DNA of 51,259 nt. Source: an uncultured Actinomyces sp. Lineage in GTDB: Bacteria; Actinomycetota; Actinomycetes; S36-B12. The stretch is from positions 1,604 to 52,862 of the forward strand of contig CAYGMM010000001.1 in NCBI GenBank assembly GCA_964351035.1. Reading direction: 5' to 3'. Below the pieces are notes generated by a model that was not told where the DNA came from, did no database searches, and was given only the letters and a program-made list of their open reading frames with translations. Numbering within the stretch: the first letter of the stretch is position 1; each line of letters starts with the position of its first letter. Shown one piece after another: positions 4,329-33,882 of this stretch. The position numbers and the translations under genes are program-made.

Positions 4329-5611
4329 CCGTGGTGATTCGCAACGTGGCGCCGTACGGCGAGGATCTGGTGGATCTCACACTGGCCGACGGTCGTATCG
4401 CCCGGGTGGACGTGGCCGGGCAGGCGCCGGCGGGGGAGCAGGAGATCGACGCGACCGGCCTGATCGCGCTGCCGGGTCTGGTCGATCTGCACACGCATCT
4501 ACGTGAACCCGGGCGTGAGGATGCCGAGACGATCGAGTCCGGTACGGCCGCCGCCGCTCTCGGCGGGTTCACGGCCGTCCATGCGATGGCCAATACCCAA
4601 CCCGTGGCGGACACAGCCGGCGTCGTGGAACAGGTGTGGCGACGTGGCCAGGAGGCCGGTCACTGCGACGTCCATCCGGTGGGCGCGGTGACGGTCGGTC
4701 TCGCCGGTGAGCGCCTCGCCGAACTCGGGGCGATGGCCGACTCCGCCGCACGGGTGCGGGTCTTCAGCGACGACGGCATTTGCGTAAGCGACGCCGTCCT
4801 CATGCGCCGGGCGCTGGAATACGTCAAGGCGTTCGACGGCGTCATCGCCCAGCACGCCCAGGAGCCACGACTGACCGAGGGCGCTCAAATGAACGAGGGT
4901 GAACTCTCCGGTGTTCTTGGGCTGCGCGGCTGGCCGCCGGTGGCGGAAGAGGCGATCATCGCCCGCGATGTCCTGCTCGCCGAACATGTTGGCTCACGCG
5001 TGCACATCTGCCATCTGAGCACCCGCGGATCGGTCGACATCATCCGCTGGGCCAAGGCCCGCGGCATTGATGTCACGGCCGAGGTCACGCCGCATCACCT
5101 GATTCTCACCGAAGAACTCGCAACGACGTACGACCCGAAATACAAGGTGAACCCGCCACTGCGCACCGCCGATGATGTCGAAGCGGTCCGCGAAGGTCTC
5201 GCCGACGGCACCATCGACATCGTCGCGACCGACCACGCGCCGCATGCGCACGAGGACAAGGACTGCGAGTGGGCGGCCGGTGCATTCGGCATGCTCGGTC
5301 TGCAGACCGCTCTGAGCGTGGTCATCGAGACGATGGTGGACGCCGGACGGCTGAACTGGCGTGAGGTCGCCGATCGCATGGCAACGGCACCAGCACACAT
5401 TGGTCGGGTGGTCGATCAGGGGCGCCCTCTCGAAGTGGGCGAGCCGGCCAACATCGTCCTCGTTGATCCCGGGGCCCGTTGGTGGGTTGACCCGGACCAA
5501 CTGGCCTCACGCAGTCGCAACACGCCGTTCGAGGGTCGCGAGATGTCCGGTCGGGTCATCGCCACCTTCCTTCGTGGTCGCCCCACCGTTCTGGACGGGG
5601 CTCTCGTATGA
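4325..5611 (+). CDS. pyrC: dihydroorotase
   Basis: [10 protein letters not shown] metal-binding motif and [12 protein letters not shown] overlaps on both sides. Confidence 0.93.
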
Positions 5612-6123
5612 GCGACGCCCTCGCTCGCACGCTGTGGGTGCTCATCGTGGTCGCGGCCATCGCCGCGACGCTGTGGGCCATGCGCCGCGGATGGAAGCGC
5701 CGCCAGGCCCGCCAGTCCGATATCGCCGCGCCACCCGTCGTGCCGCCCGATGTCGGCTCGACCCTCCTGGGTCCCGTTACCGGGAGATACGTGGGCACCG
5801 TGAGCGCGGGCGACTGGCTCGATCGGGTCGCCGTCCACGACCTGGGCGTGCGCAGTGCCGCCGACGTCACGATCACCGAGGCCGGTGTTGTCATACGTCG
5901 CCAGGGGGCCGCCGATCTCTTCCTCGCGACCGATGCCATCCATGGCGTACGCGCCGATCGGGGGATCGCCGGACGCGTGGCTGAGCGCGGTGGGGTGCTC
6001 GTCGTCACCTGGGACCTAGGTGGCAGGCTGGTCGACAGCGGTTTCCGGGCTGACGTGGGCAAAGAGCAGGCGGCCCTGATCAGCACCATCGAGTCAGTGC
6101 TAGCCGAGGAGAGGGCATCATGA
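5608..6123 (+). CDS. conserved N-terminally anchored membrane protein of the pyr operon, function unknown
   Basis: One N-terminal TM segment ([17 protein letters not shown]) followed by a soluble domain. It occupies the slot between pyrC and carA that holds a small membrane-protein gene in mycobacteria (Rv1382, from memory). Translationally coupled on both sides. Confidence 0.7.
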
Positions 6124-15765: not shown

Positions 15766-15876
15766 GGGTCAAGAGCGCCAGCATCAAGCCCCGGCTCGCT
15801 GGCCGGCAACCCTCGGCAACCGCGGTGGGGTGCCCCGGGTGAGGACTAGGTCCGCAACAGCGGGCAAGCGCGGGTC
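15766..15876 (+). promoter_or_regulatory. SAM-IV class riboswitch in the metK leader
   Basis: gggtcaagagcgccagc-atcaagccccggctcgctggccggcaaccctc...cgcggtggggtgccccgggtga...gcgggcaagcgcgggtc matches, block for block, the mycobacterial SAM-IV sequence as I remember it. It ends about 12 nt before the gaaggg SD of metK. Confidence 0.8.
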
Positions 15877-15895
15877 GATTGACCCCGACGAAGGG

Positions 15896-17101
15896 ATGCT
15901 TGTGTCACGTCGCCTGTTCACCTCCGAATCCGTTACTGAAGGTCATCCGGACAAGATGGCCGATCAGATCAGCGATGCGATCCTCGACAGTCTGCTCGAG
16001 CAGGACCCGCGCAGTCGTGTCGCGGTGGAGACCTTGTTGACGACGGGCCAGGTGCACGTGGCCGGCGAGGTCACGACCGATGGATACGCGGATGTCATGA
16101 ACATCGTGCGCGATGTTGTCCTGGAGATCGGCTATGACCATTCGGAGAAGGGATTTGATGGCGAGTCCTGCGGCGTTTCGGTGTCGATCGGTGCGCAGTC
16201 CCCGGATATCGCCCAGGGCGTCAACGATGCGATCGAAGAGCGTGAGGGGCACAGTGCCGATCCACTCGACCGTCAGGGCGCGGGCGACCAGGGGTTGATG
16301 TTCGGGTACGCCAGCACCGATACCCCGAGCCTGATGCCGCTGCCGATCTCGCTGGCCCATCGACTCGCCGAGCAGCTCACCGCCGTACGCAAGGACGGCA
16401 CGATGGGCTACCTCCGTCCCGATGGCAAGACGCAGGTGACGATCGAGTACGACGAGCAGGACAAGCCGCTGCGGATCGACACCATCGTGGTGTCCAGTCA
16501 GCACGCCAAGGATGTCGATCTCGATGCCACGCTGGCGCCGGAGATCCGTGCCAACGTCGTTGAGCCGATCCTGGCGCAGGTGGATCTGCCCAGCGACGAC
16601 TTCCGACTCCTGGTCAATCCGACGGGTCGCTTCGAGGTGGGCGGGCCGATGGGCGACGCCGGTCTCACGGGACGCAAGATCATCGTGGACACCTACGGGG
16701 GGATGGCACGTCACGGCGGCGGAGCCTTCAGCGGCAAGGACCCGTCGAAGGTGGACCGCTCAGCGGCCTACGCCATGCGCTGGGTGGCCAAGAATGTCGT
16801 GGCGGCCGGACTCGCCGATCGCTGCGAGGTACAGGTGGCTTACGCCATCGGCAAAGCGCATCCGGTGGGGGTCTTCGTCCAGACGTTCGGGACCGGCGTG
16901 CTGCCCGATGAGCAGATCCAAGAGGCGGTGCTCGAGGTGTTCGACCTGCGTCCGGCCGCGATCATCCGCGACCTGGATCTGCTGCGGCCGATCTATCGGC
17001 CGACGGCGGCGTACGGCCACTTCGGTCGGGAGTTGCCGAACTTCACGTGGGAGCGAACTGATCGCGCCGACGCGCTGAAGGCGGCTGCCGGCGCGAAGTA
17101 G
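15896..17101 (+). CDS. metK: S-adenosylmethionine synthetase
   Basis: [44 protein letters not shown]. The start is ATG 15896 or GTG 15902. The ORF-track start 15830 lies inside the riboswitch. Confidence 0.95.
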
Positions 17102-17173
17102 GTGTGCGCTGAAGGCGGCTGCCGGCGCGAAGTAGGTGTGCGCTGAAGGCGGCTGCCGGCGCGAAGTAGGTGT
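17072..17173. repeat. perfect tandem repeat, 3 x 34 bp, duplicating the metK 3' end including its TAG stop
   Basis: The unit gcgctgaaggcggctgccggcgcgaagtaggtgt occurs at 17072-17105, 17106-17139 and 17140-17173 with no mismatch. Confidence 0.92.
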
Positions 17174-17177
17174 GCGA

Positions 17178-17295
17178 TTAGCGGGACAAATGGTCGATAC
17201 GCCCCTCTCAGAGGCCTCCATCGACCGTTTCTCCCGCTAAGCGGGACAAATGGTCGACAGGGCGGTTGCGTGGGCGATTATCGACCGTTTCTCCC
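17178..17295. repeat. palindromic intergenic element R3 (two tandem hairpins) between convergent metK and the GGDEF-like gene
   Basis: gcgggacaaatggtcga occurs at 17181 and 17241. Its near-complement tcgaccgtttctccc occurs at 17221 and 17281. Confidence 0.75.
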
Positions 17296-17323
17296 ATGGG
17301 GAAGCCAAGGCTGTACGGCGGAT

Positions 17324-18544
17324 CTAGGCCGTCACGGGTCGGCTGGCGGATGCGCGCGCGATGAGTTCGTCCGCGCTCAGCGAGGCGGGATCAACGTCAA
17401 TCGCGTGTACGGACAGGTGGACGGGGCGCTTGCCGAGCGCAACACCTGAGTCATCCAATGCCCGGCGAACGCCATCGGCCAACGTCGAACGATCGACGGT
17501 CCCGACGCCCACAGCGGCGAACGCGCCCGCCGTCCATCGGGCGACCAGAGCCCCCTCGGGCAGCGCCGTGCGCAGCGATCGATACGCCGCGGTGATGACC
17601 TCGTCGCCGTACCCGATGCCGTAGCGGTCGTTGATCTCGAGCAGTTCGTCGATGGTCGCGACGACGCCGTACACCGGTTGGGCAGAGGTCTGGGCGGCAC
17701 TCCACACGGCTGGCGCGAGATCGGTGAGGCCGCGCCGCGACAGTGCGCCCGTGAGGGGATCTGACGTCAGCATGGTGGCGATGCGCGCCTGCTCGGCGGC
17801 GATCCGATCGACTCCGATGATGCGCAGTTGGAGCAGAATCGCGCCGACGGCCAATGCGGTCAGGGCGGCGAGCGCCCAGCCAGTGGTCTGGACGGTCTCG
17901 ATCAGGTACCCGGCAATGACGATGCCCACGAGCGCGGCACCGCCGCCGATCATGCCGGCCGGCCATGACATGGCGATCGGCACGAGCCCGACGAGGATGA
18001 CCAGGGCGTAGGCGAGCGTGACCGGGTTGTCTTCTTCCACTGCCTGCCACGACACGAAGCCCACAACGCCGGCCATCCCTGCCGCCCAGAGCCACGGCAG
18101 CGCCCGCGGCGCGATCGCCCGACGGCCCGCCACCTGGGCAACCGCGAGTACGACGAGAGCAAAGAGCGCTCCGGCGATATCCGAGACGACGGATGCCTGC
18201 GGGGAGGTGAAGACCAGGAGGAGGGTCAGGACGATGGCGACGGCACCGCTGAGCGTCAGCGCGATGGGGATCGTTTGGTAAGCGCTCTCGAGGCGTAGCC
18301 GCGAGGCAGGATCGCTTAACTGGCGCAGTTCGGGGGCGGGTTGGGTCACATTGACCTCCTCCGGGTCGAGATCTGGGCGCAGCGGCGCAAGGCGATGAGG
18401 TTGAACCGGTCGAGGCCAGGGCACCAAACGCCCCGCGGTGAGACCGAGATACACGAGGGTGTTGATGCCGACGAAGATCAAGAAGACCCGGAAGCCGGTG
18501 GAGGTCAGCAGGCTCTCTGGTAGGAGGAGACCGGTAGGCATCAT
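17324..18544 (-). CDS. polytopic membrane protein with C-terminal degenerate GGDEF domain
   Basis: Starts MMPTGLLLPE, with ATGATG overlapping the TGA of the upstream GT2 gene. Several hydrophobic segments are followed by DPLTGALSRRG...IDELLEINDRYGIGYGDEVI...RWTAGAFAAVG, so GGDEF is replaced by TAGAF and other catalytic positions are changed. The ORF-track N-terminal extension to 18937 overlaps the GT2 gene and is rejected. Confidence 0.8.
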   Translation of the reverse strand: MMPTGLLLPESLLTSTGFRVFLIFVGINTLVYLGLTAGRLVPWPRPVQPHRLAPLRPDLDPEEVNVTQPAPELRQLSDPASRLRLESAYQTIPIALTLSGAVAIVLTLLLVFTSPQASVVSDIAGALFALVVLAVAQVAGRRAIAPRALPWLWAAGMAGVVGFVSWQAVEEDNPVTLAYALVILVGLVPIAMSWPAGMIGGGAALVGIVIAGYLIETVQTTGWALAALTALAVGAILLQLRIIGVDRIAAEQARIATMLTSDPLTGALSRRGLTDLAPAVWSAAQTSAQPVYGVVATIDELLEINDRYGIGYGDEVITAAYRSLRTALPEGALVARWTAGAFAAVGVGTVDRSTLADGVRRALDDSGVALGKRPVHLSVHAIDVDPASLSADELIARASASRPVTA

Positions 18545-20010
18545 GTCGGGACCTTCTCGCCGACATGGTTCCAACGAGCCTCCTGACCGGTGCCGATCCG
18601 CCACAGGCTGTTGACGAAGACCGCCTGCAGGAACAGGTCGTAGGCCAACTCCGGGAACAGGGTGAGGGCGAGCAATCGAGCACGCCAACCCCCTCGCCAA
18701 GCTGTCACCACGCGTTCGAGCCAGAAGACGGACCCGACGGTGAGCCAGAACGGGAACCAGACCCACTGATCCAACGCGAGCGCGGTCATCCCCATCAGGG
18801 TCAGTGCGCTCACCAGCGCGACCGTGCCGTAGCCAATACCGAATTGCTGTCCCCAGTAGCGCAGGGTCGCGGCACGGAATCCATAAGCCCCGAGGTTCTC
18901 CAGCGCCCCTCGCTGCCACCTTTGTCTCTGCCGCCACAGGTCACCCCAGGTGGGCATGAGTTCCGTCGTGACCGTGCACTCACGCGGAGACAGCATGGGT
19001 GCCCCGAGAACCTTCAGCGCCAAGGTGAGTTCATTGTCCTCGGTCAACGCCGCAGTGTCGTAGACCTGCCCGGGGGGTCCGGGCAGGAAGACACCGCGCG
19101 CGGCCGCTACGTCAAGCAAGAGCGTGGCGCGGAACATGGATGCGGTGCCGGTGAGCACGAAGACGCGTCCGCGCCGCTGCCGGATCTGAGTTCCGTACCT
19201 CGTGTACTCGTTGCGTTGAAATTGGCCCAGTACCCCGTGCCCAGGCTCGCCCGAGAACAAGCCCCCGATAGCGCCGAGTTCCGTGTCATCTTCGAGGCTC
19301 TGCGCGCCGACCGCGATGAAGTCCGCACCGAGCGTGGTGTCGGCGTCCATGACGAGCACGAGGTCTTCTCCACCCATCACGGGGAGCAGTCGATCGAGGG
19401 CCTGATTAAGTGCGCCGCCCTTCTTCTCGGTGTTGTTCCTCGTCTCGAAGACCTCATGCCCGAACCCGCGGGCGATCTCAGCGGTGCGATCGGTGCAGTT
19501 GTCCGCAACGACAATGACGCGGTCCGGTGCGCGTGATTGACGCGACAGTGCTTCGAGGGTGGCGCCGATGCGGTCCTGTTCATTGTGTGCGGGGATGAGA
19601 ACGGTCACCCGCAAACGTCGACCCGGCACCGGGGGTCGCTCATCGCCGCGCAGCAGTTCGAGGTAGCGACGGTAAGGGCTCAACGCCGAAAGGGTGGATA
19701 GGGCTTCGAGCAAGATCGTGATGACGACGATCGCCCCGAGAGCGACGAGGGCGCCGGTGATGACCTGGCTGGGCGGCTGAGCGTCTGAGACGAGCACCGT
19801 CCACGGCCCGATCTGGGTCTGTTCAATGGATCCGGAAGTCTCCACCGGGGCCAGTAGCCGCGCCACGGTCAGGGCGAGGACGGCCACCGCGGCGATGGCC
19901 ACGAGGACGAAGACGACGACGAGTCGCACGTAAAAGGCAGGTCGGAGGGTCAGCGCGGACGGCGGGGGGAGCGGCGGTGCTCCAATATCGCTCGGGTCCG
20001 CCGGGGTCAC
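18541..20010 (-). CDS. family-2 processive beta-glycosyltransferase (polysaccharide synthase-like)
   Basis: VLIPAHNEQ, VVADNCTD, VMDADT, TEDNELT (TED) and RQRQRWQRG (QxxRW), with N- and C-terminal TM segments. GTG 20010 is chosen as start (alternative ATG 20082). The ORF-track extension to 21291 runs antisense through priA. Confidence 0.83.
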   Translation of the reverse strand: MTPADPSDIGAPPLPPPSALTLRPAFYVRLVVVFVLVAIAAVAVLALTVARLLAPVETSGSIEQTQIGPWTVLVSDAQPPSQVITGALVALGAIVVITILLEALSTLSALSPYRRYLELLRGDERPPVPGRRLRVTVLIPAHNEQDRIGATLEALSRQSRAPDRVIVVADNCTDRTAEIARGFGHEVFETRNNTEKKGGALNQALDRLLPVMGGEDLVLVMDADTTLGADFIAVGAQSLEDDTELGAIGGLFSGEPGHGVLGQFQRNEYTRYGTQIRQRRGRVFVLTGTASMFRATLLLDVAAARGVFLPGPPGQVYDTAALTEDNELTLALKVLGAPMLSPRECTVTTELMPTWGDLWRQRQRWQRGALENLGAYGFRAATLRYWGQQFGIGYGTVALVSALTLMGMTALALDQWVWFPFWLTVGSVFWLERVVTAWRGGWRARLLALTLFPELAYDLFLQAVFVNSLWRIGTGQEARWNHVGEKVPT

Positions 20011-20088
20011 ACGTCTATCTAAACATTCTCTCTGCCGCGACTGGGGCGTCACTTCTGCCCCGTCGGACCGGACTGACACCATCGGGGC

Positions 20089-22071
20089 ATGTCGGAGTTG
20101 CCGGTTGCGCGCGTCCTGGTCGACGTGCCTCTCGCGCACCTGGACCGGCCCTTCGATTACACCGTTCCCGATTCCATGTCCGTCGACGCGGTCCCGGGCG
20201 CCCGGGTCCGCGTGCGCTTCGCCGGCCGATTGGTCAACGGCTTCCTGCTGGAGCGAGTTGCCTCGAGCGAGCACGCTCGACTGCAACCGCTGCAGCGCGT
20301 GACCTCCCCGGTCCCCGTCCTCACGCCCGAGGTCGCCACGCTGGCTCGCGCCGTGGCGGATCGCTACGCCGGCACCCTGTCCGACGTCCTGCGTACCGCG
20401 GTCCCGCCACGTCACGCGCGCGCCGAGGCCCAGGTCCTGGCCGAGCCCGCCCCCACCGCCGTGCTCGCCGATCCCCCCACGCCCGATGCAGTGGATGCCT
20501 GGTCGACATACGCCGGTGGTGACGCGCTGCTGCATCGGCTCACCGATGGCGCGCGCGGCATCCGTGCGGTGTGGGACGCCGCTCCCGGCGGGGGCCAGGG
20601 CGATGCCGGTGACTGGCCCGACCGCGTGGCCGACTTGGCGGCGGCCGCCCAGCCCCACGGCGGTGTGGTCCTCGTCGTCCCCGATGCCCGCGATGTCGCG
20701 CGCGTCGACGGCGCCCTGCGGCATCGGCTCGGCGATGACGCGCATGTCACGCTCACGGCCCAGCTTGGCCCACAGCGCCGCTACGCCAACTTCCTCCGGG
20801 CCGCTACGGGTCGCACCCGCGTCGTCCTGGGGACCCGAGCCGCCGTGTTCGCGCCGGTGATCGATCCGTCGCTGCTGGTCATCTGGGATGACGGTGACGA
20901 TTCCCACGACGAGCCACACGCGCCCTATTGGCATGCGCGCGAAGTACTCGCCCTGCGCGCCCACCTGTCCGGGGCCTCGCTCGTTGCCGGGGGTTTCGCG
21001 CGTTCGGTCGAGGCACAGGCGTGGATCGAGTCCGGGTGGGCCAAGCCGGTGGTCCTGAAGCGTGAGGCTCTGCGCATAACGGCCCCTCGAGTCACTGCCG
21101 ATGACGCCCATGATGAGCAGGGGCCTGCGCGGCTGCCGTCCCGGTCGTGGCAGATCGCGCGCACCGCCCTCGAGTCCGGGCCCGTGCTGGTGCAGGTCTC
21201 GCGCCGTGGCTACCTCCCGGGGCTGGCCTGCCAGCGCTGCCGCACGCCAGCGCGCTGTGCCGCCTGCGCGGGACCCCTGGAACTGCCGCACGCCGGCGGT
21301 GCTCCCGTGTGCCGCTGGTGTTCAACCGCGGCCCTTCACTGGCGCTGTGCGGAGTGCGGAGCCGATCGGCTCCGCGCCATGAGCGTGGGCTCGGCGCGCA
21401 CGGTCGAAGAACTCGGCCGTGCCTTCCCCAGCACGCGCATCCTGTCGTCGAGTGGTGATCACATCCTCGATCGCATCGACGGTGGAGGGTTGGTCGTGGC
21501 CACGCCTGGTGCCGAGCCGATCTCCGCCGACGGGTACGCCGCCGTTCTCATCCTCGACGCCCACGCGCATCTGTCGCGCGCGGCGCTACGGGCGGGGGAG
21601 GAGACCGCGCGCCGCTGGTTCGGTGCCGCGGCACTGGCGCGACCCGGTGCTCCTGTGGTGATCACGGCGCCCCCCTCGGTGCCCTTGATCCAGGCCCTCG
21701 TGCGATGGGACCCCGCAGGCTACGCCGCGCGCGAACTCGCCGAACGGTCCGAACTCGGACTACCGCCGGCCGTGCGATGCGCCAGCATCGTGGGCGACCC
21801 TGCGCTGGTCGCGGAGGTAGCCGACTCCCTGTCCGACGACGTACGACGGGTCGGTCCGCTGGATTTGCCCAACAACGCGCGCAGCCGACTTCGGCTCGGC
21901 GACGAAGCGCCCGAGCGGCTCTCCCGCTTGCTGGTGACGGCCCCGCGCTCCGCAGGGGGCACGTTGACGTCGGCGCTTCACGGCATCCAAGCGCAGCGGT
22001 CGGCCCGCAAGGATCCTCGAACCCTCGCCATCCACGTCGATCCACTCGACTGGGGCAGCGACCTCGCGTAA
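20089..22071 (+). CDS. priA: primosomal protein N' (PriA family), ATPase motifs degenerate
   Basis: N-terminal VARVLVDVPLAHLDRPFDYTVP and RVRVRFAGRLVNGFL, plus the four-CxxC zinc region CQRC...CAAC...CRWC...CAEC. No GKT/GKS is present anywhere in the protein. Confidence 0.88.
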   Translation: MSELPVARVLVDVPLAHLDRPFDYTVPDSMSVDAVPGARVRVRFAGRLVNGFLLERVASSEHARLQPLQRVTSPVPVLTPEVATLARAVADRYAGTLSDVLRTAVPPRHARAEAQVLAEPAPTAVLADPPTPDAVDAWSTYAGGDALLHRLTDGARGIRAVWDAAPGGGQGDAGDWPDRVADLAAAAQPHGGVVLVVPDARDVARVDGALRHRLGDDAHVTLTAQLGPQRRYANFLRAATGRTRVVLGTRAAVFAPVIDPSLLVIWDDGDDSHDEPHAPYWHAREVLALRAHLSGASLVAGGFARSVEAQAWIESGWAKPVVLKREALRITAPRVTADDAHDEQGPARLPSRSWQIARTALESGPVLVQVSRRGYLPGLACQRCRTPARCAACAGPLELPHAGGAPVCRWCSTAALHWRCAECGADRLRAMSVGSARTVEELGRAFPSTRILSSSGDHILDRIDGGGLVVATPGAEPISADGYAAVLILDAHAHLSRAALRAGEETARRWFGAAALARPGAPVVITAPPSVPLIQALVRWDPAGYAARELAERSELGLPPAVRCASIVGDPALVAEVADSLSDDVRRVGPLDLPNNARSRLRLGDEAPERLSRLLVTAPRSAGGTLTSALHGIQAQRSARKDPRTLAIHVDPLDWGSDLA

Positions 22072-32863: not shown

Positions 32864-33694
32864 ATGGCCGACCTCACATCGACGAGGTCGCCTCGGGTGG
32901 CGGAGATCCGCCGACTGCACGACCGAAGGCACCGCGCGCAGCGCGGTGCCTTCGTCGTCGAAGGACCCCAGGCGGTCGAGGCGGCGCTGCACTCGGCGGT
33001 GAGCGAGCTCTACGTCACGCGCGAGGCCGCCGATCGCTACGCGACGCTGGTGGAGCGGGCGCGTGCGCAGGGTGCGCAGGTCCATACCGCCAGCGAGGAC
33101 GTCCTCGCGGCGATGGCCGAAACCCGACAGCCGCAGGGACTGATTGCCGTGTGCCCGCTGGTGACGGTCGGGCTCGAGGCCGCACTTGCCGCTGCGACGA
33201 AGCGCCCCCTGCGATGTGTGGTGCTTTTGGACCGGGCCAATGACCCCGGCAACGCCGGCACGGTGATTCGTACCGCTGATGCACTGGGCGTGGGTGCGGT
33301 GATCTTCACCGAGGGGTCGGTGGATCCGCACAATGGCAAGGTGGTGCGCTCGACGGCGGGTTCGCTGTTCCACATTCCCATCGCGGCCGATATTGCTGTG
33401 TCAGACGCGATCGGTGCGCTCGTTGCCGCCGGGTACGTGCTTGTCGCCGCCGATGCGCAGGGGAGTGTGCACCTCGGCACGATGGGGGCCGAGGCGGTGC
33501 TCTGTGGCCCGGTGGCGTGGGTCATCGGCAACGAGGCGCACGGCGTCCATGAGGATCTGCGCGCGGCCGCCCACGAGACGGTGTCGATTCCCATGTCGGG
33601 CGGCGCCGAGAGCCTCAACATGGCCGCGGCCGCGGCCATCTGCCTCTACGCCACCCGCATCGCCCAACACCCCAACGCCGTTTCTCCCGCTTAG
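32864..33694 (+). CDS. TrmH/SpoU-family RNA 2'-O-methyltransferase (TsnR-like)
   Basis: DPGNAGTVIRTADALG, VIGNEAHGV, IPMSGGAESLNMAAAAAICLY. ATG 32864 lies 2 nt after the rplT stop. Confidence 0.85.
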   Translation: MADLTSTRSPRVAEIRRLHDRRHRAQRGAFVVEGPQAVEAALHSAVSELYVTREAADRYATLVERARAQGAQVHTASEDVLAAMAETRQPQGLIAVCPLVTVGLEAALAAATKRPLRCVVLLDRANDPGNAGTVIRTADALGVGAVIFTEGSVDPHNGKVVRSTAGSLFHIPIAADIAVSDAIGALVAAGYVLVAADAQGSVHLGTMGAEAVLCGPVAWVIGNEAHGVHEDLRAAAHETVSIPMSGGAESLNMAAAAAICLYATRIAQHPNAVSPA

Positions 33695-33748
33695 CGGGAC
33701 AGATGGTCGATGGCAGCCCGCCAGCGGCCCGTATCGACCATTTCTCCC
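33680..33748. repeat. palindromic intergenic element R4, overlapping the last codons and stop of the trmH-like gene
   Basis: gtttctcccgcttagcgggacagatggtcga ... tcgaccatttctccc. The left part is nearly identical to the centre of R3 (cgtttctcccgctaagcgggacaaatggtcga). Confidence 0.7.
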
Positions 33749-33882
33749 ACCACGGGAGCCCGCCAAGAAGGGGCAGGGACGAAAGTCCCCACGACACGGG
33801 TCGTTCGGCGACCGGTCACGCGGTAACGGTGCGCGCACACTCGAAGCATTCGGGCTAACCGAGCCCCGAGGGAGGCACGCGC

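Follow-up and report, generated by a model that had tools for sequence, protein, structure and literature searches.

A minus-strand gene for a membrane glycosyltransferase runs directly into a gene for a protein whose GGDEF domain has lost its catalytic motifs. What does such a pair do, and which part of the second protein serves the first? The question is raised by the window, the whole stretch of 51,259 nucleotides analyzed here, in which the two genes lie between metK and priA (Table 1). An earlier note on this DNA had read them as a two-component exopolysaccharide (EPS) synthase, composed of a processive family 2 glycosyltransferase (GT2) and a partner with a dead GGDEF domain.

Table 1. 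Features of the pair and its surroundings, in positions of the window
Feature	Position	Strand	Basis or remark
metK	15830..17101	+	Flank of pair
Perfect tandem repeat, 34 bp x 3.1	17072..17176		metK side
~59-bp palindromic unit, two copies	17180..17298		metK side; third copy at 33693..33751
Partner gene	17324..18544	-	ATGATG start, 406 aa, 7 TM (1+6); ORF call, Pfam, AF2, hydropathy
GGDEF-like domain, aa 246-406, non-catalytic, without I-site	17327..17809	-	Pfam, PDB profile, Foldseek, motif states
TAGAF replacing GGDEF	17519..17533	-	Translation
PEGA at RxxD I-site position, five residues upstream of signature	17549..17560	-	Translation
TID replacing DxD (metal-binding Asp gone)	17648..17656	-	Translation
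DPLTGALSRRG, Ser269 in place of guanine-contact Asn	17729..17761	-	Translation
6-TM block, aa 86-245, like membrane anchor of stand-alone membrane diguanylate cyclases	17810..18289	-	AF2, hydropathy, DGC alignments
Linker, aa 49-85, cytoplasmic, poorly conserved, low confidence	18290..18400	-	pLDDT <50 at residues 56-68; 6 K/R
N-terminal accessory helix, aa 1-48, MMPTGLLLPESLLTSTGFRVFLIFVGINTLVYLGLTAGRLVPWP...	18401..18544	-	Sole partner segment adjoining GT2 in every locus examined
ATGA start/stop overlap GT2/partner, 4 nt	18541..18544	-	Sequence and translation
GT2 membrane synthase gene	18541..20010	-	GTG start, 489 aa; ORF call, Pfam GT2 families
QRQRW (QxxRW), acceptor-binding motif	18916..18930	-	Translation; Q361, R362, R364, W365 invariant in 59-sequence alignment
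TED motif (catalytic base region)	19036..19044	-	Translation; T323, E324, D325 invariant in 59-sequence alignment
DxD (DAD), metal/UDP-binding motif	19339..19347	-	Translation; D222, A223, D224 invariant in 59-sequence alignment
Divergent intergenic region GT2/priA, 78 bp, relatively AT-rich	20011..20088	.	Sequence
priA	20089..22071	+	Flank of pair

The GT2 has the motifs and predicted fold of a membrane synthase

The GT2 protein matched three Pfam families (Glyco_tranf_2_3, 9.5e-23; Glycos_transf_2, 2.1e-19; Glyco_trans_2_3, 9.5e-16). The D, DxD, TED, and QRxRW motifs and the flanking TM segments listed in the earlier note were recovered from the translation and an AF2 model (pLDDT 75.8, pTM 0.74; residues 306 to 323 of low confidence), and the motif residues are invariant in an alignment of 59 sequences with a mean column identity of 67%. 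Among them is D170, read from the translation within VVADNCTD. In the model, two N-terminal TMs with a short outside hairpin are followed by a cytoplasmic GT-A domain, interface helices, and C-terminal TMs. TED and QRxRW are marks of synthases that bind an acceptor polymer.

Whether run with a single sequence or with a profile, searches of PDB sequences for the GT2 returned only weak, N-terminal GT-A matches, and the fold search alone was informative. Its best match was CvHAS (7sp7; E 4.9e-12, TM-score 0.52 over 448 columns), and further full-length matches were to XlHAS1, BcsA, and chitin synthases (8smn, 4hg6, and 7stm among the entries). These matches to HAS, BcsA, and CHS include the TM region, and their TM-scores are moderate, at only ~0.5. 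The second-ranked match was PcManGT (6yv7), a membrane GT2 that has this minimal fold as well and is annotated as a mannosyltransferase; therefore, the fold alone is no proof of processivity. The best-scoring curated full-domain model was the PgaC/IcaA equivalog TIGR03937, at 58.8 bits against a cutoff of 422.3. Assignment to BcsA failed (TIGR03030, 12.6 versus 699 bits; no PilZ match in Pfam), and the N-terminal half gave weak NCBIfam and PDB sequence matches to Dpm1-, AglJ-, and GpgS-type enzymes. The protein carries the D, DxD, (T)ED, and QxxRW motifs of processive GT2 synthases (BcsA/HAS/CHS/PgaC/NodC type), their flanking TM helices, and, at those moderate TM-scores, a synthase-like fold. 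Its motif set and predicted fold support the view that it is a membrane-embedded processive synthase.

The partner joins a single helix to a membrane-bound GGDEF-like module

As the earlier note had stated, the GT2 stop codon overlaps the ATGATG start of a multi-TM partner. This protein runs from an N-out TM helix through a cytoplasmic linker, a 6-TM block, and an S-helix to a GGDEF-like domain. AF2 helices span residues 79-113, 119-140, 146-171, 174-191, 194-215, and 220-260, and hydropathy places RRAIAP as the positive-inside loop of the 6-TM block. No Pfam family was found for this block, and the accessory helix matched none of the Pfam or NCBIfam families. Stand-alone diguanylate cyclases (DGCs) of 340 to 360 aa with an intact RWGGDEF align to the partner only over query positions 80 to 400, with profile matches that start at the linker boundary (about query position 80). 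Neither of the two checked adjoins a GT2.

The C-terminal domain belongs to the GGDEF (PF00990) fold. It matched the Pfam GGDEF model over residues 261 to 368 (E 1.4e-11; 44.9 bits versus a cutoff of 23.8), 51 PDB GGDEF chains in a profile search, and GGDEF/DGC structures in Foldseek with a probability of 1.00, and AF2 predicted it at a pLDDT of 80 to 92. With the GT2 families above, the Pfam match confirms both domain assignments of the earlier note. Translation also bore out its motif readings: DPLTGALSRRG is kept, but TAGAF, TID, and Ser269 are not the residues of an active DGC, and PEGA occupies the position, five residues upstream of the signature, where I-site receptors of the PelD, PssE, YdaK, and BcsE type have RxxD. 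By its sequence, then, the domain lacks every known nucleotide-binding motif, and in the window genome the receptor module of the partner is probably blind to c-di-GMP. Among its fold matches is 3qyy, titled 'A Novel Interaction Mode between a Microbial GGDEF Domain and c-di-GMP'.

The N-terminal helix always accompanies the GT2

The GT2 is present in at least 498 actinobacterial species genomes. Of 88 loci, 83 have readable downstream DNA, and in all 83 the downstream ORF shares the ~45-aa N-terminal TM helix of the partner (HMM positions 1 to 44), which has the consensus LLPxSxLxSxWF...FVAxNTxxY and an xxNTx motif in 83/85. An NTGA start/stop overlap lies at the GT2 stop in 72 of the 83, and the order GT2-partner with overlap recurs in unrelated genomic contexts. 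The co-occurrence outside this genome on which the earlier note had staked its reading is therefore found across Actinomycetota. GT2 identity is 57 to 92% in the family alignment and 49 to 92% over all 80 scanned loci.

Beyond the helix, the partner takes two forms. About 50 loci have the long form, with helix, 6 TMs, and GGDEF-like domain; another 31 encode only a 45- to 116-aa peptide, helix plus basic tail, with an ETRSI-type motif in 19. Short ORFs that match the N-helix over its full length do so at E values of roughly 1e-13 to 1e-19; matches are weaker where the start call is truncated. Since the partner is a helix-only peptide in these 31 loci, the GGDEF module is an optional add-on rather than the defining second component, and the constant companion of the GT2 is the helix. 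The two-component synthase of the earlier note keeps its pair and its degenerate domain, but not the GGDEF protein as its constant component.

A word search with 9 close homologues had made the partner look rare. An exhaustive profile search (125 clusters at 50% identity, E<1e-30) and the genome scan showed this to be an artefact of sensitivity; when the indexed search was repeated with a broader profile, no more than 8 usable sequences were gained. Apparent GT2-partner fusions were rejected: P0125 (716 aa) and P0016 (577 aa) merely have over-extended N termini, and P0137 (783 aa) is a partner whose module occurs twice. A GGDEF-remnant match at loci L056 and L057 came from stop-to-stop ORFs that reach back into the GT2 gene.

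In five contexts (the window and four related loci), no PgaB/IcaB-type deacetylase, BcsB-like, or hydrolase gene was linked to the pair. Literature searches for the actinobacterial module gave only Firmicute and proteobacterial analogues. The family comes from freshwater, soil, and wastewater Actinomycetota (Nanopelagicales-type MAGs, Micrococcales).

The pair is an old resident of the metK-priA interval

The metK/priA synteny is kept in 13 related loci, where priA is only 57 to 76% identical, and the partner reading frame is intact in all 13, down to the lowest of these identities. The GC3 of the two genes (0.79 and 0.81) equals that of their neighbors, and their codon composition likewise matches. 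The neighbor-like GC3 and the synteny rule out a recent horizontal insertion; the insertion between metK and priA described in the earlier note holds as an old, clade-level event. That note had also taken the tandem repeat and a repeat element as the boundary of the pair on the metK side. Because the metK-partner gap in one related locus (L001) is only 10 bp, these repeats and palindromes are lineage-specific filler and not insertion boundaries.

The window is overwhelmingly plus strand. Apart from the pair, no minus-strand ORF has Pfam support, so the earlier count of three minus-strand genes, two of them this pair, broadly stands, although the third was not found. The 78-bp GT2/priA interval is presumed to be the promoter region of the pair. 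Consensus scans for promoters and terminators gave nothing above shuffled expectation and no promoter in that interval, and an Rfam search found no upstream riboswitch, for c-di-GMP or otherwise; its sole matches were to miRNAs, by chance, on the palindrome.

The I-site was lost stepwise in a domain under selection

The guanine-contact Asn is found in none of the 51 long forms versus 65/70 stand-alone DGCs. GGDEF is kept in 7 of the 51 and the RxxD I-site in 27, and 20 have Pro for Arg. These Pro-bearing members form a roughly monophyletic clade, with the window protein in its most eroded branch, in which R changed to P first and D to A later. Since 27 family members keep RxxD, the missing canonical I-site, correctly noted earlier for the window protein, is a derived state of its clade. 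By the same motifs, the family at large fits the class of degenerate-GGDEF I-site receptors and the window member does not. The SGVALGK and RW...F motifs are still conserved in members without the I-site.

The dN/dS was 0.06 for the N-helix and 0.05 for the GT2. For the GGDEF-like domain, whose rate of evolution is about threefold that of the GT2, it was 0.15 against L020 and 0.26 against L001. The GGDEF-like domain of the window's clade is under purifying selection. Given that the I-site, GGDEF, metal-binding Asp, and guanine-contact Asn are gone and the domain is nevertheless selected, we infer regulation or scaffolding that is independent of canonical c-di-GMP binding.

Comparison with known systems

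The arrangement proposed here, a membrane-bound dead-GGDEF protein in a GT2 EPS synthase operon and needed for its activation, has counterparts in YdaK-YdaM (Bacillus subtilis ydaJKLMN; PMC5422440) and PssE-PssC (Listeria monocytogenes pssA-E; PMC4125290). EPS production by YdaLMN depends on R202 and D205 in the I-site of YdaK, a 4-TM protein whose GGDEF domain is degenerate (PMC5422440), and PssE is an I-site receptor required for Pss EPS (PMC4125290). About half of the actinobacterial family shares their RxxD, whereas the window protein lacks the I-site on which their function depends. These systems differ from the window pair in that they include BcsB-like or hydrolase components and show no coupling between the receptor gene and the stop codon of the synthase. 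The window's receptor module is, moreover, fused to a synthase-associated helix that also exists alone; the likeness drawn here is one of description.

In PgaC-PgaD (E. coli) and IcaA-IcaD (staphylococci), as in the window, a GT2 and a small membrane protein are encoded directly adjacent to each other. Full activity of PgaC and IcaA requires PgaD and IcaD, respectively, two small membrane proteins that are not homologous to each other (PMC7112194, PMC8461298), and the short partner forms fall within the size range of such subunits. The window pair differs from both in scoring far below the equivalog cutoff and in having no linked deacetylase. PgaD has no GGDEF domain, and the accessory helix, which belongs to no Pfam or NCBIfam family, would be analogous in role only.

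In PelD (Pseudomonas Pel) and BcsE, too, a degenerate GGDEF fold serves to regulate EPS machinery. PelD combines 4 TMs and a GAF domain with a degenerate GGDEF domain and binds c-di-GMP through RxxD plus R402 (PMC8461298). Its I-site is intact, and its partner in a multi-protein system is the GT4 enzyme PelF; the window protein has neither GAF domain nor I-site. BcsE, unlike the window partner, is soluble. A precedent for a GGDEF fold acting without c-di-GMP is GdpS, a staphylococcal membrane protein that, as summarized in PMC7112194 (its reference 69), affects EPS (ica) output independently of c-di-GMP; in that account it acts on ica expression rather than as a subunit and is not encoded with the synthase. 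The NCBIfam GdpS match of the partner is weak (E 0.031) and reflects a likeness common to GGDEF domains in general. In the solved structures that best match the window GT2, those of class I hyaluronan synthase, BcsA, and chitin synthase, the D, DxD, (T)ED, and QxxRW motifs likewise occur in a GT-A domain that is combined with a TM channel. At 13 to 20% identity to these solved synthases, the GT2 lacks BcsA's PilZ and a BcsB, and none of them is known to use a coupled single-helix subunit of the window type.

Proposed mechanism and alternatives

By analogy, the pair is best read as an IcaAD/PgaCD-like synthase whose small subunit is fused to a receptor module of the YdaK/PssE type. As such, it would be a membrane-embedded glycan synthase that is self-contained with two subunits and belongs to an uncharacterized family widespread in Actinomycetota. 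The GT2 would be the catalytic and translocating subunit, an inverting family 2 synthase of the hyaluronan/cellulose/chitin/PNAG type that polymerizes a nucleotide-sugar and, if processive and exporting as its features suggest, extrudes the chain through its own TM channel. Translational coupling would yield the partner, whose N-out/C-in helix (aa ~10-45) may dock on the synthase as an obligate small subunit, a counterpart in role, though not a sequence homologue, of IcaD in IcaAD and of PgaD in PgaCD. A flexible cytoplasmic linker ties this helix, in the window's lineage and many others, to the 6-TM and GGDEF-fold module, which appears related to stand-alone membrane DGCs and non-catalytic across the family. 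In the RxxD-keeping half, the module is most probably a c-di-GMP receptor that switches the synthase on, like YdaK and PssE. In the window's clade it may regulate or scaffold the synthase independently of canonical c-di-GMP binding, for example as a dimer formed via its S-helix and GGDEF fold or as a relay for signals that the 6-TM block senses. On balance we lean, slightly, toward this account of the window pair as a two-subunit synthase whose helix subunit is fused to such a regulatory module.

A partner that still receives c-di-GMP at a non-canonical site (another surface of the GGDEF fold, the S-helix, or a GT2 interface as in PgaCD) would make the pair a conventional c-di-GMP-activated EPS synthase. 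PgaCD indeed binds c-di-GMP without a recognizable domain (PMC8461298), the closest analogues are I-site receptors (PMC5422440; PMC4125290), and the RxxD kept by about half of the family, the RW...F and SGVALGK motifs retained by I-site-less members, and the purifying selection on the domain would all suit this alternative. We nevertheless consider it unlikely: both I-site residues are replaced, and a change at either R202 or D205 abolishes YdaK function (PMC5422440); the site eroded progressively, the pattern of one no longer selected; and 31 lineages dispense with the module altogether. That the module is a decaying, functionless relic, with only the helix of importance and truncation yet to occur, seems very improbable. 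The loss of all nucleotide-binding motifs, the many lineages with a short peptide only, the split partner gene at one related locus (L036), and the threefold faster evolution fit decay, but the dN/dS values above indicate purifying selection rather than neutrality, and the frame intact in 13 of 13 syntenic relatives, the confidently predicted fold, and the family-specific SGVALGK also speak against it.

The GT2 itself could be non-processive, passing a sugar to a lipid carrier or an envelope glycoconjugate, with the helix as a chaperone or flippase-like accessory. The invariance of TED and QRxRW in 59 sequences, the full-length fold matches across the TM region of HAS, BcsA, and CHS, and PgaC/IcaA as the best curated full-domain match make this quite unlikely, even with PcManGT as the second fold match and the weak Dpm1-, AglJ-, and GpgS-type similarities in its favor. 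The lack of linked export, modification, and hydrolase genes in the five contexts also points that way, but monoderm actinobacteria need no outer-membrane export components.

For the preferred synthase reading, a tentative extension is that the helix is an undescribed obligate synthase subunit in hundreds of species and that the GGDEF fold of the window's clade, devoid of A- and I-sites, has been repurposed to bind either the GT2 or some ligand that is not c-di-GMP. The family might then present, equally tentatively, a natural series from GGDEF with I-site through degenerate with I-site and without I-site to no module.

Significance

To our knowledge, the mechanism by which degenerate GGDEF receptors such as YdaK, PssE, and PelD switch on synthases is not understood. 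With only two genes, in monoderm bacteria, the family is a minimal system for studying this control, and its receptor is covalently tied to a conserved synthase-associated helix. Intermediates (I-site positive, I-site negative, and module absent) occur on an almost unchanged catalytic subunit, which makes swaps between short and long forms or between RxxD and PxxA straightforward. The analysis also flags a 45- to 116-aa small-protein family that has no Pfam or NCBIfam model. If the GGDEF fold has indeed been repurposed, it would represent a c-di-GMP-independent way to gate a synthase. The family defines a widespread, uncharacterized putative polymer synthase, whose product could matter for aggregation, biofilm formation, and envelope biology.

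An overlapping GT2-partner gene pair between metK and priA

The family-2 glycosyltransferase gene (GT2) and its partner gene overlap: the first ATG of the partner and the TGA stop of GT2 share the tetranucleotide ATGA. The earlier note had read this overlap with an ATGATG start from the sequence. Every motif that it listed for the two proteins was present at the expected place upon translation, and Pfam matched the domains that it had named, GT2 families in the upstream product and GGDEF in the partner. The GTG start of GT2 leaves a relatively AT-rich divergent spacer of 78 bp to priA. The minus-strand open reading frame (ORF) that holds GT2 extends to 21291, antisense across priA, and an in-frame ATG at 20082 is an alternative start that would leave just 6 bp to priA (20082-20089). 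Two database homologues, P0016 (577 aa) and P0125 (716 aa), are likewise over-extended at the N-terminus. The start in agreement with the 489-aa orthologues is the GTG at 20010.

Features of the GT2-partner locus and associated repeats, in window coordinates
Feature	Position	Strand	Remark
metK	15830-17101	+	flank of pair
34-bp tandem repeat	17072-17176		perfect
~59-bp palindromic unit, two adjacent copies	17180-17298		between convergent metK and partner
Partner ORF, 406 aa	17324-18544	-	ATGATG start; downstream gene of pair
GT2 ORF, 489 aa	18541-20010	-	GTG start; upstream gene of pair
GVFLPGPPGQVYDTAAL segment (GT2 aa 306-323)	~19042-19095
priA	20089-22071	+	flank of pair
~59-bp palindromic unit, third copy	33693-33751

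GT2 is encoded in at least 498 genomes, as counted by a profile-guided scan in which each species was represented by one genome, and nearly all named records belong to Actinomycetota. Carriers include Glutamicibacter, Leucobacter, Sinomonas, Arthrobacter, Tersicoccus, Phycicoccus, and Microbacterium in the Micrococcales, as well as Nanopelagicales-labelled metagenome-assembled genomes (MAGs), one Mycobacterium sp., one Nocardioides, Coriobacteriia, and Microthrixaceae. Among named relatives, a 'Candidatus Nanopelagicales' MAG (locus L020) is the closest, at 92% identity. An NTGA start/stop overlap was found at 72 of 83 loci, a count that is independent of the choice of downstream start codon. 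In a relative with a 65%-identical partner, both the priA/GT2-partner/metK order and the 4-nt overlap are kept. Around three remoter homologues of GT2 (contigs of 2 Mb, 588 kb, and 744 kb) the gene neighborhoods are unrelated, and in each case the next gene overlaps by 4 nt and encodes a GGDEF protein of 416 to 423 aa. The pairing proposed in the earlier note is therefore not peculiar to one locus, since it recurs with its overlap in unrelated surroundings. A literature search found no paper describing this GT2-partner module.

The metK/priA synteny of the pair was found at loci L001-3, L009-12, L014-16, L019, L020, and L026, with priA identity down to 57%, and the location of the pair is therefore old. 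The GC3 values of GT2 and the partner are 0.79 and 0.81, and those of the neighbors are 0.74 to 0.83. The earlier description of the pair as inserted antisense between metK and priA was right about position, but a recent insertion is ruled out by the clade-level synteny and by GC3 equal to that of the neighbors.

The tandem repeat that had been noticed on the metK side comprises 3.1 copies that are 100% identical. The first of them coincides with the final ~30 nt of metK, TAG stop included, so that the gene's 3' end and stop are present three times. In the 65%-identity relatives, 10 to 78 bp separate metK from the partner and the repeat is missing; it could reflect recent slippage, duplication, or an assembly artefact. 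The palindromic unit has the arms AGCGGGACAAATGGTCGA / TCGACCGTTTCTCCCGCT, with five arm matches observed against 0.04 expected. As an intergenic hairpin it is similar to REP or MITE-like elements, and it may be a bidirectional terminator; the sole Rfam matches were chance miRNA hits to this hairpin.

GT2 resembles membrane-embedded polysaccharide synthases

GT2 matches the Pfam families Glyco_tranf_2_3, Glycos_transf_2, and Glyco_trans_2_3 (E 1e-23 to 1e-16) and carries the motifs VVADNCTD, DAD, TED, and QRQRW. It has thousands of homologues; the best ~120, at 56 to 90% identity, are nearly all from MAGs of Actinomycetota. Across an alignment of 59 sequences, mean column identity was 67% and all four catalytic motifs were invariant. 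The AlphaFold2 (AF2) model (pLDDT 75.8, pTM 0.74) places two N-terminal transmembrane (TM) helices, joined by a short hairpin, before a GT-A domain, interface helices, and C-terminal TM helices. Its best full-length fold match was Chlorella virus hyaluronan synthase (E 4.9e-12, TM 0.52), followed by Xenopus HAS1, BcsA, and fungal chitin synthases. GT2 scored below every curated equivalog cutoff tried (PgaC/IcaA, 58.8 vs 422 bits; NodC, 24 vs 550; CelA, 12.6 vs 699), and we therefore class it as a synthase-type GT2 and leave its product unnamed.

The segment GVFLPGPPGQVYDTAAL directly precedes TED. Its residues P310, G311, G314, Y317, D318, and T319 are almost invariant across the family, and it is the lowest-confidence part of the model (pLDDT below 50). 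It may be a mobile, family-specific active-site loop, such as a priming or gating loop.

The partner combines an accessory helix with a GGDEF-type membrane module

A partner HMM was built from 41 full-length partners, and at every locus the ORF beginning on the GT2 stop or shortly beyond it was searched; some downstream starts were set by the best HMM alignment, so individual GT2-partner offsets are approximate. All loci with readable downstream DNA have an ORF at the GT2 stop whose first ~44 residues match the partner N-terminus. This N-terminal helix (N-helix) has the consensus G-[IL]-L-L-P-x-S-x-L-x-S-x-W-F-x-x-L-A-x-F-V-A-[IF]-N-T-[LIV]-x-Y, with the xxNTx core in 83 of 85. About 50 loci encode a long-form partner (392 to 430 aa), and Mycobacterium sp. 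B14F4 is one of the carriers of this form. At 31 loci, covering most of the Micrococcales genera listed (Glutamicibacter, Leucobacter, Arthrobacter, and Sinomonas among them), the ORF encodes a short form, a peptide of 45 to 116 aa made up of the helix and a basic tail only (for example, L086 6329-6535, with 68 aa, and L080 6107-6316).

An exhaustive profile search also recovered stand-alone membrane proteins of 340 to 360 aa that align solely to partner positions ~80 to 400. These retain intact RWGGDEF, D-[IV]-D-G-L-K-x-A-N-D, and RxxD motifs, and no GT2 adjoined the two that could be placed. Since the helix occurs alone in short forms and the stand-alone proteins match the remainder, the partner is a two-part fusion of a synthase-associated single TM helix and a 6-TM/GGDEF module of the membrane diguanylate cyclase (DGC) type. 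The linker between the two parts is poorly conserved, with pLDDT below 50 at residues 56 to 68. Neither Pfam nor NCBIfam matched the N-helix, the short peptides, or the 6-TM block.

Several variants were seen among the homologues. A C-terminal tail motif, R-R-x-E-T-R-S-I-[YH]-P-[DE], occurs in 19 of the 31 short forms (Micrococcales; L061-L088); it is absent from long forms, matched no Pfam or NCBIfam family, and might serve in regulation or as a contact site in the cytoplasm. At L036 the partner is split into a 116-aa ORF with the N-helix (4655-5005) and an overlapping ORF (4869-5891) matching HMM positions 88 to 408. This is either a frameshift, a sequencing error, or a natural break at the linker, and the last would fit the two-module architecture. 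The metagenomic protein P0137 (783 aa) has one N-terminal accessory helix followed by a tandem duplication of the 6-TM and GGDEF-like module.

Hydropathy, the positive-inside rule, and AF2 helices predict an N-terminus outside, TM1 at residues 16 to 40, a cytoplasmic linker with six K/R residues, and then six more TMs, of which the RRAIAP loop faces inward. Residues 220 to 260 form one long predicted helix (TM7 and S-helix) that continues to the GGDEF fold in the cytoplasm. The short forms, with their basic tails, are in keeping with a helix whose C-terminal end is inside. The partner had been described as polytopic with a degenerate GGDEF domain lacking RxxD, and both descriptions hold: hydropathy and AF2 give 1 + 6 TMs, and translation gives TAGAF for GGDEF, TID for DxD, and PEGA at the RxxD position (I-site) five residues upstream of the signature.

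The GGDEF-like domain is eroded in sequence and retained in fold

Residues 261 to 368 of the partner match Pfam GGDEF (44.9 bits; cutoff 23.8), and the partner carries the motif DPLTGALSRRG. PleD-type cyclases use the Asn of DxLTGLxNR to contact the guanine of GTP. Among 51 species-level long forms this Asn was replaced by T, S, or A in all 51; it was present in 65 of 70 stand-alone relatives. An intact GGDEF signature was found in 7 of the 51, and elsewhere the site is hypervariable (e.g., DGDAF, SADDF, EGDCF, SGTRF, TAGAF). RxxD is retained in 27 long forms, and its Arg position is Pro in 20. L005 and L049 are examples of loci whose partner has kept the I-site. On a crude neighbor-joining tree, the Pro-bearing partners form one broad clade, the same as that of the loci with metK/priA synteny. 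Within it the Asp was lost later (PEGD, then PEGA, PQGA, PSGA, and PARA), and the window partner falls in the most eroded branch.

Nei-Gojobori dN/dS between the window and L020 was 0.05 for GT2, 0.06 for the N-helix, 0.13 for the 6-TM block, and 0.15 for the GGDEF-like domain; against L001, the last value was 0.26, with dS near saturation. AF2 predicted a well-formed GGDEF fold (pLDDT 80 to 92) that retains a family-specific motif, SGVALGK. A fold search matched the partner to DGC structures at probability 1.00, and the membrane cyclase ImcA (8wcn) aligned over 351 columns. The domain is kept by selection despite the loss of every known nucleotide-contact motif.

Proposed mechanism and alternatives

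The N-helix, which is coupled to GT2, invariably co-encoded with it, and evolving as slowly, would be an obligate small subunit of the synthase. We liken its role to that of the accessory subunits IcaD and PgaD, two proteins that lack homology with one another (PMC7112194, PMC8461298). The GGDEF-type module is an optional, receptor-type addition. In RxxD-bearing members, c-di-GMP binding by the module would activate the synthase, by analogy with YdaK and PssE, whose c-di-GMP binding activates their synthases (PMC5422440, PMC4125290). In the clade of the window partner, the module would act without canonical c-di-GMP binding, perhaps by dimerizing into a scaffold or by relaying from the 6-TM block; a GGDEF protein that works independently of c-di-GMP has a precedent in GdpS (cited in PMC7112194).

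With PEGA in place of RxxD, the partner might still bind c-di-GMP at a noncanonical site, which we consider unlikely. That the module is a functionless relic would suit its lost motifs, but the dN/dS values disfavor this reading, and we regard it as very doubtful. For GT2 itself, the main alternative to a synthase is an enzyme similar to PcManGT that makes a single transfer; a nonprocessive GT2 seems rather improbable.

Exopolysaccharide synthases with a degenerate-GGDEF membrane partner are already known from Firmicutes and Pseudomonas, and synthases with a small TM accessory protein are known from PNAG systems. The novelty lies in the joining of these two concepts in one polypeptide, an accessory helix family without a curated protein-family model, the minimal two-gene organization of such a system in Actinomycetota, and a graded natural series of regulatory-module erosion over a nearly constant enzyme.
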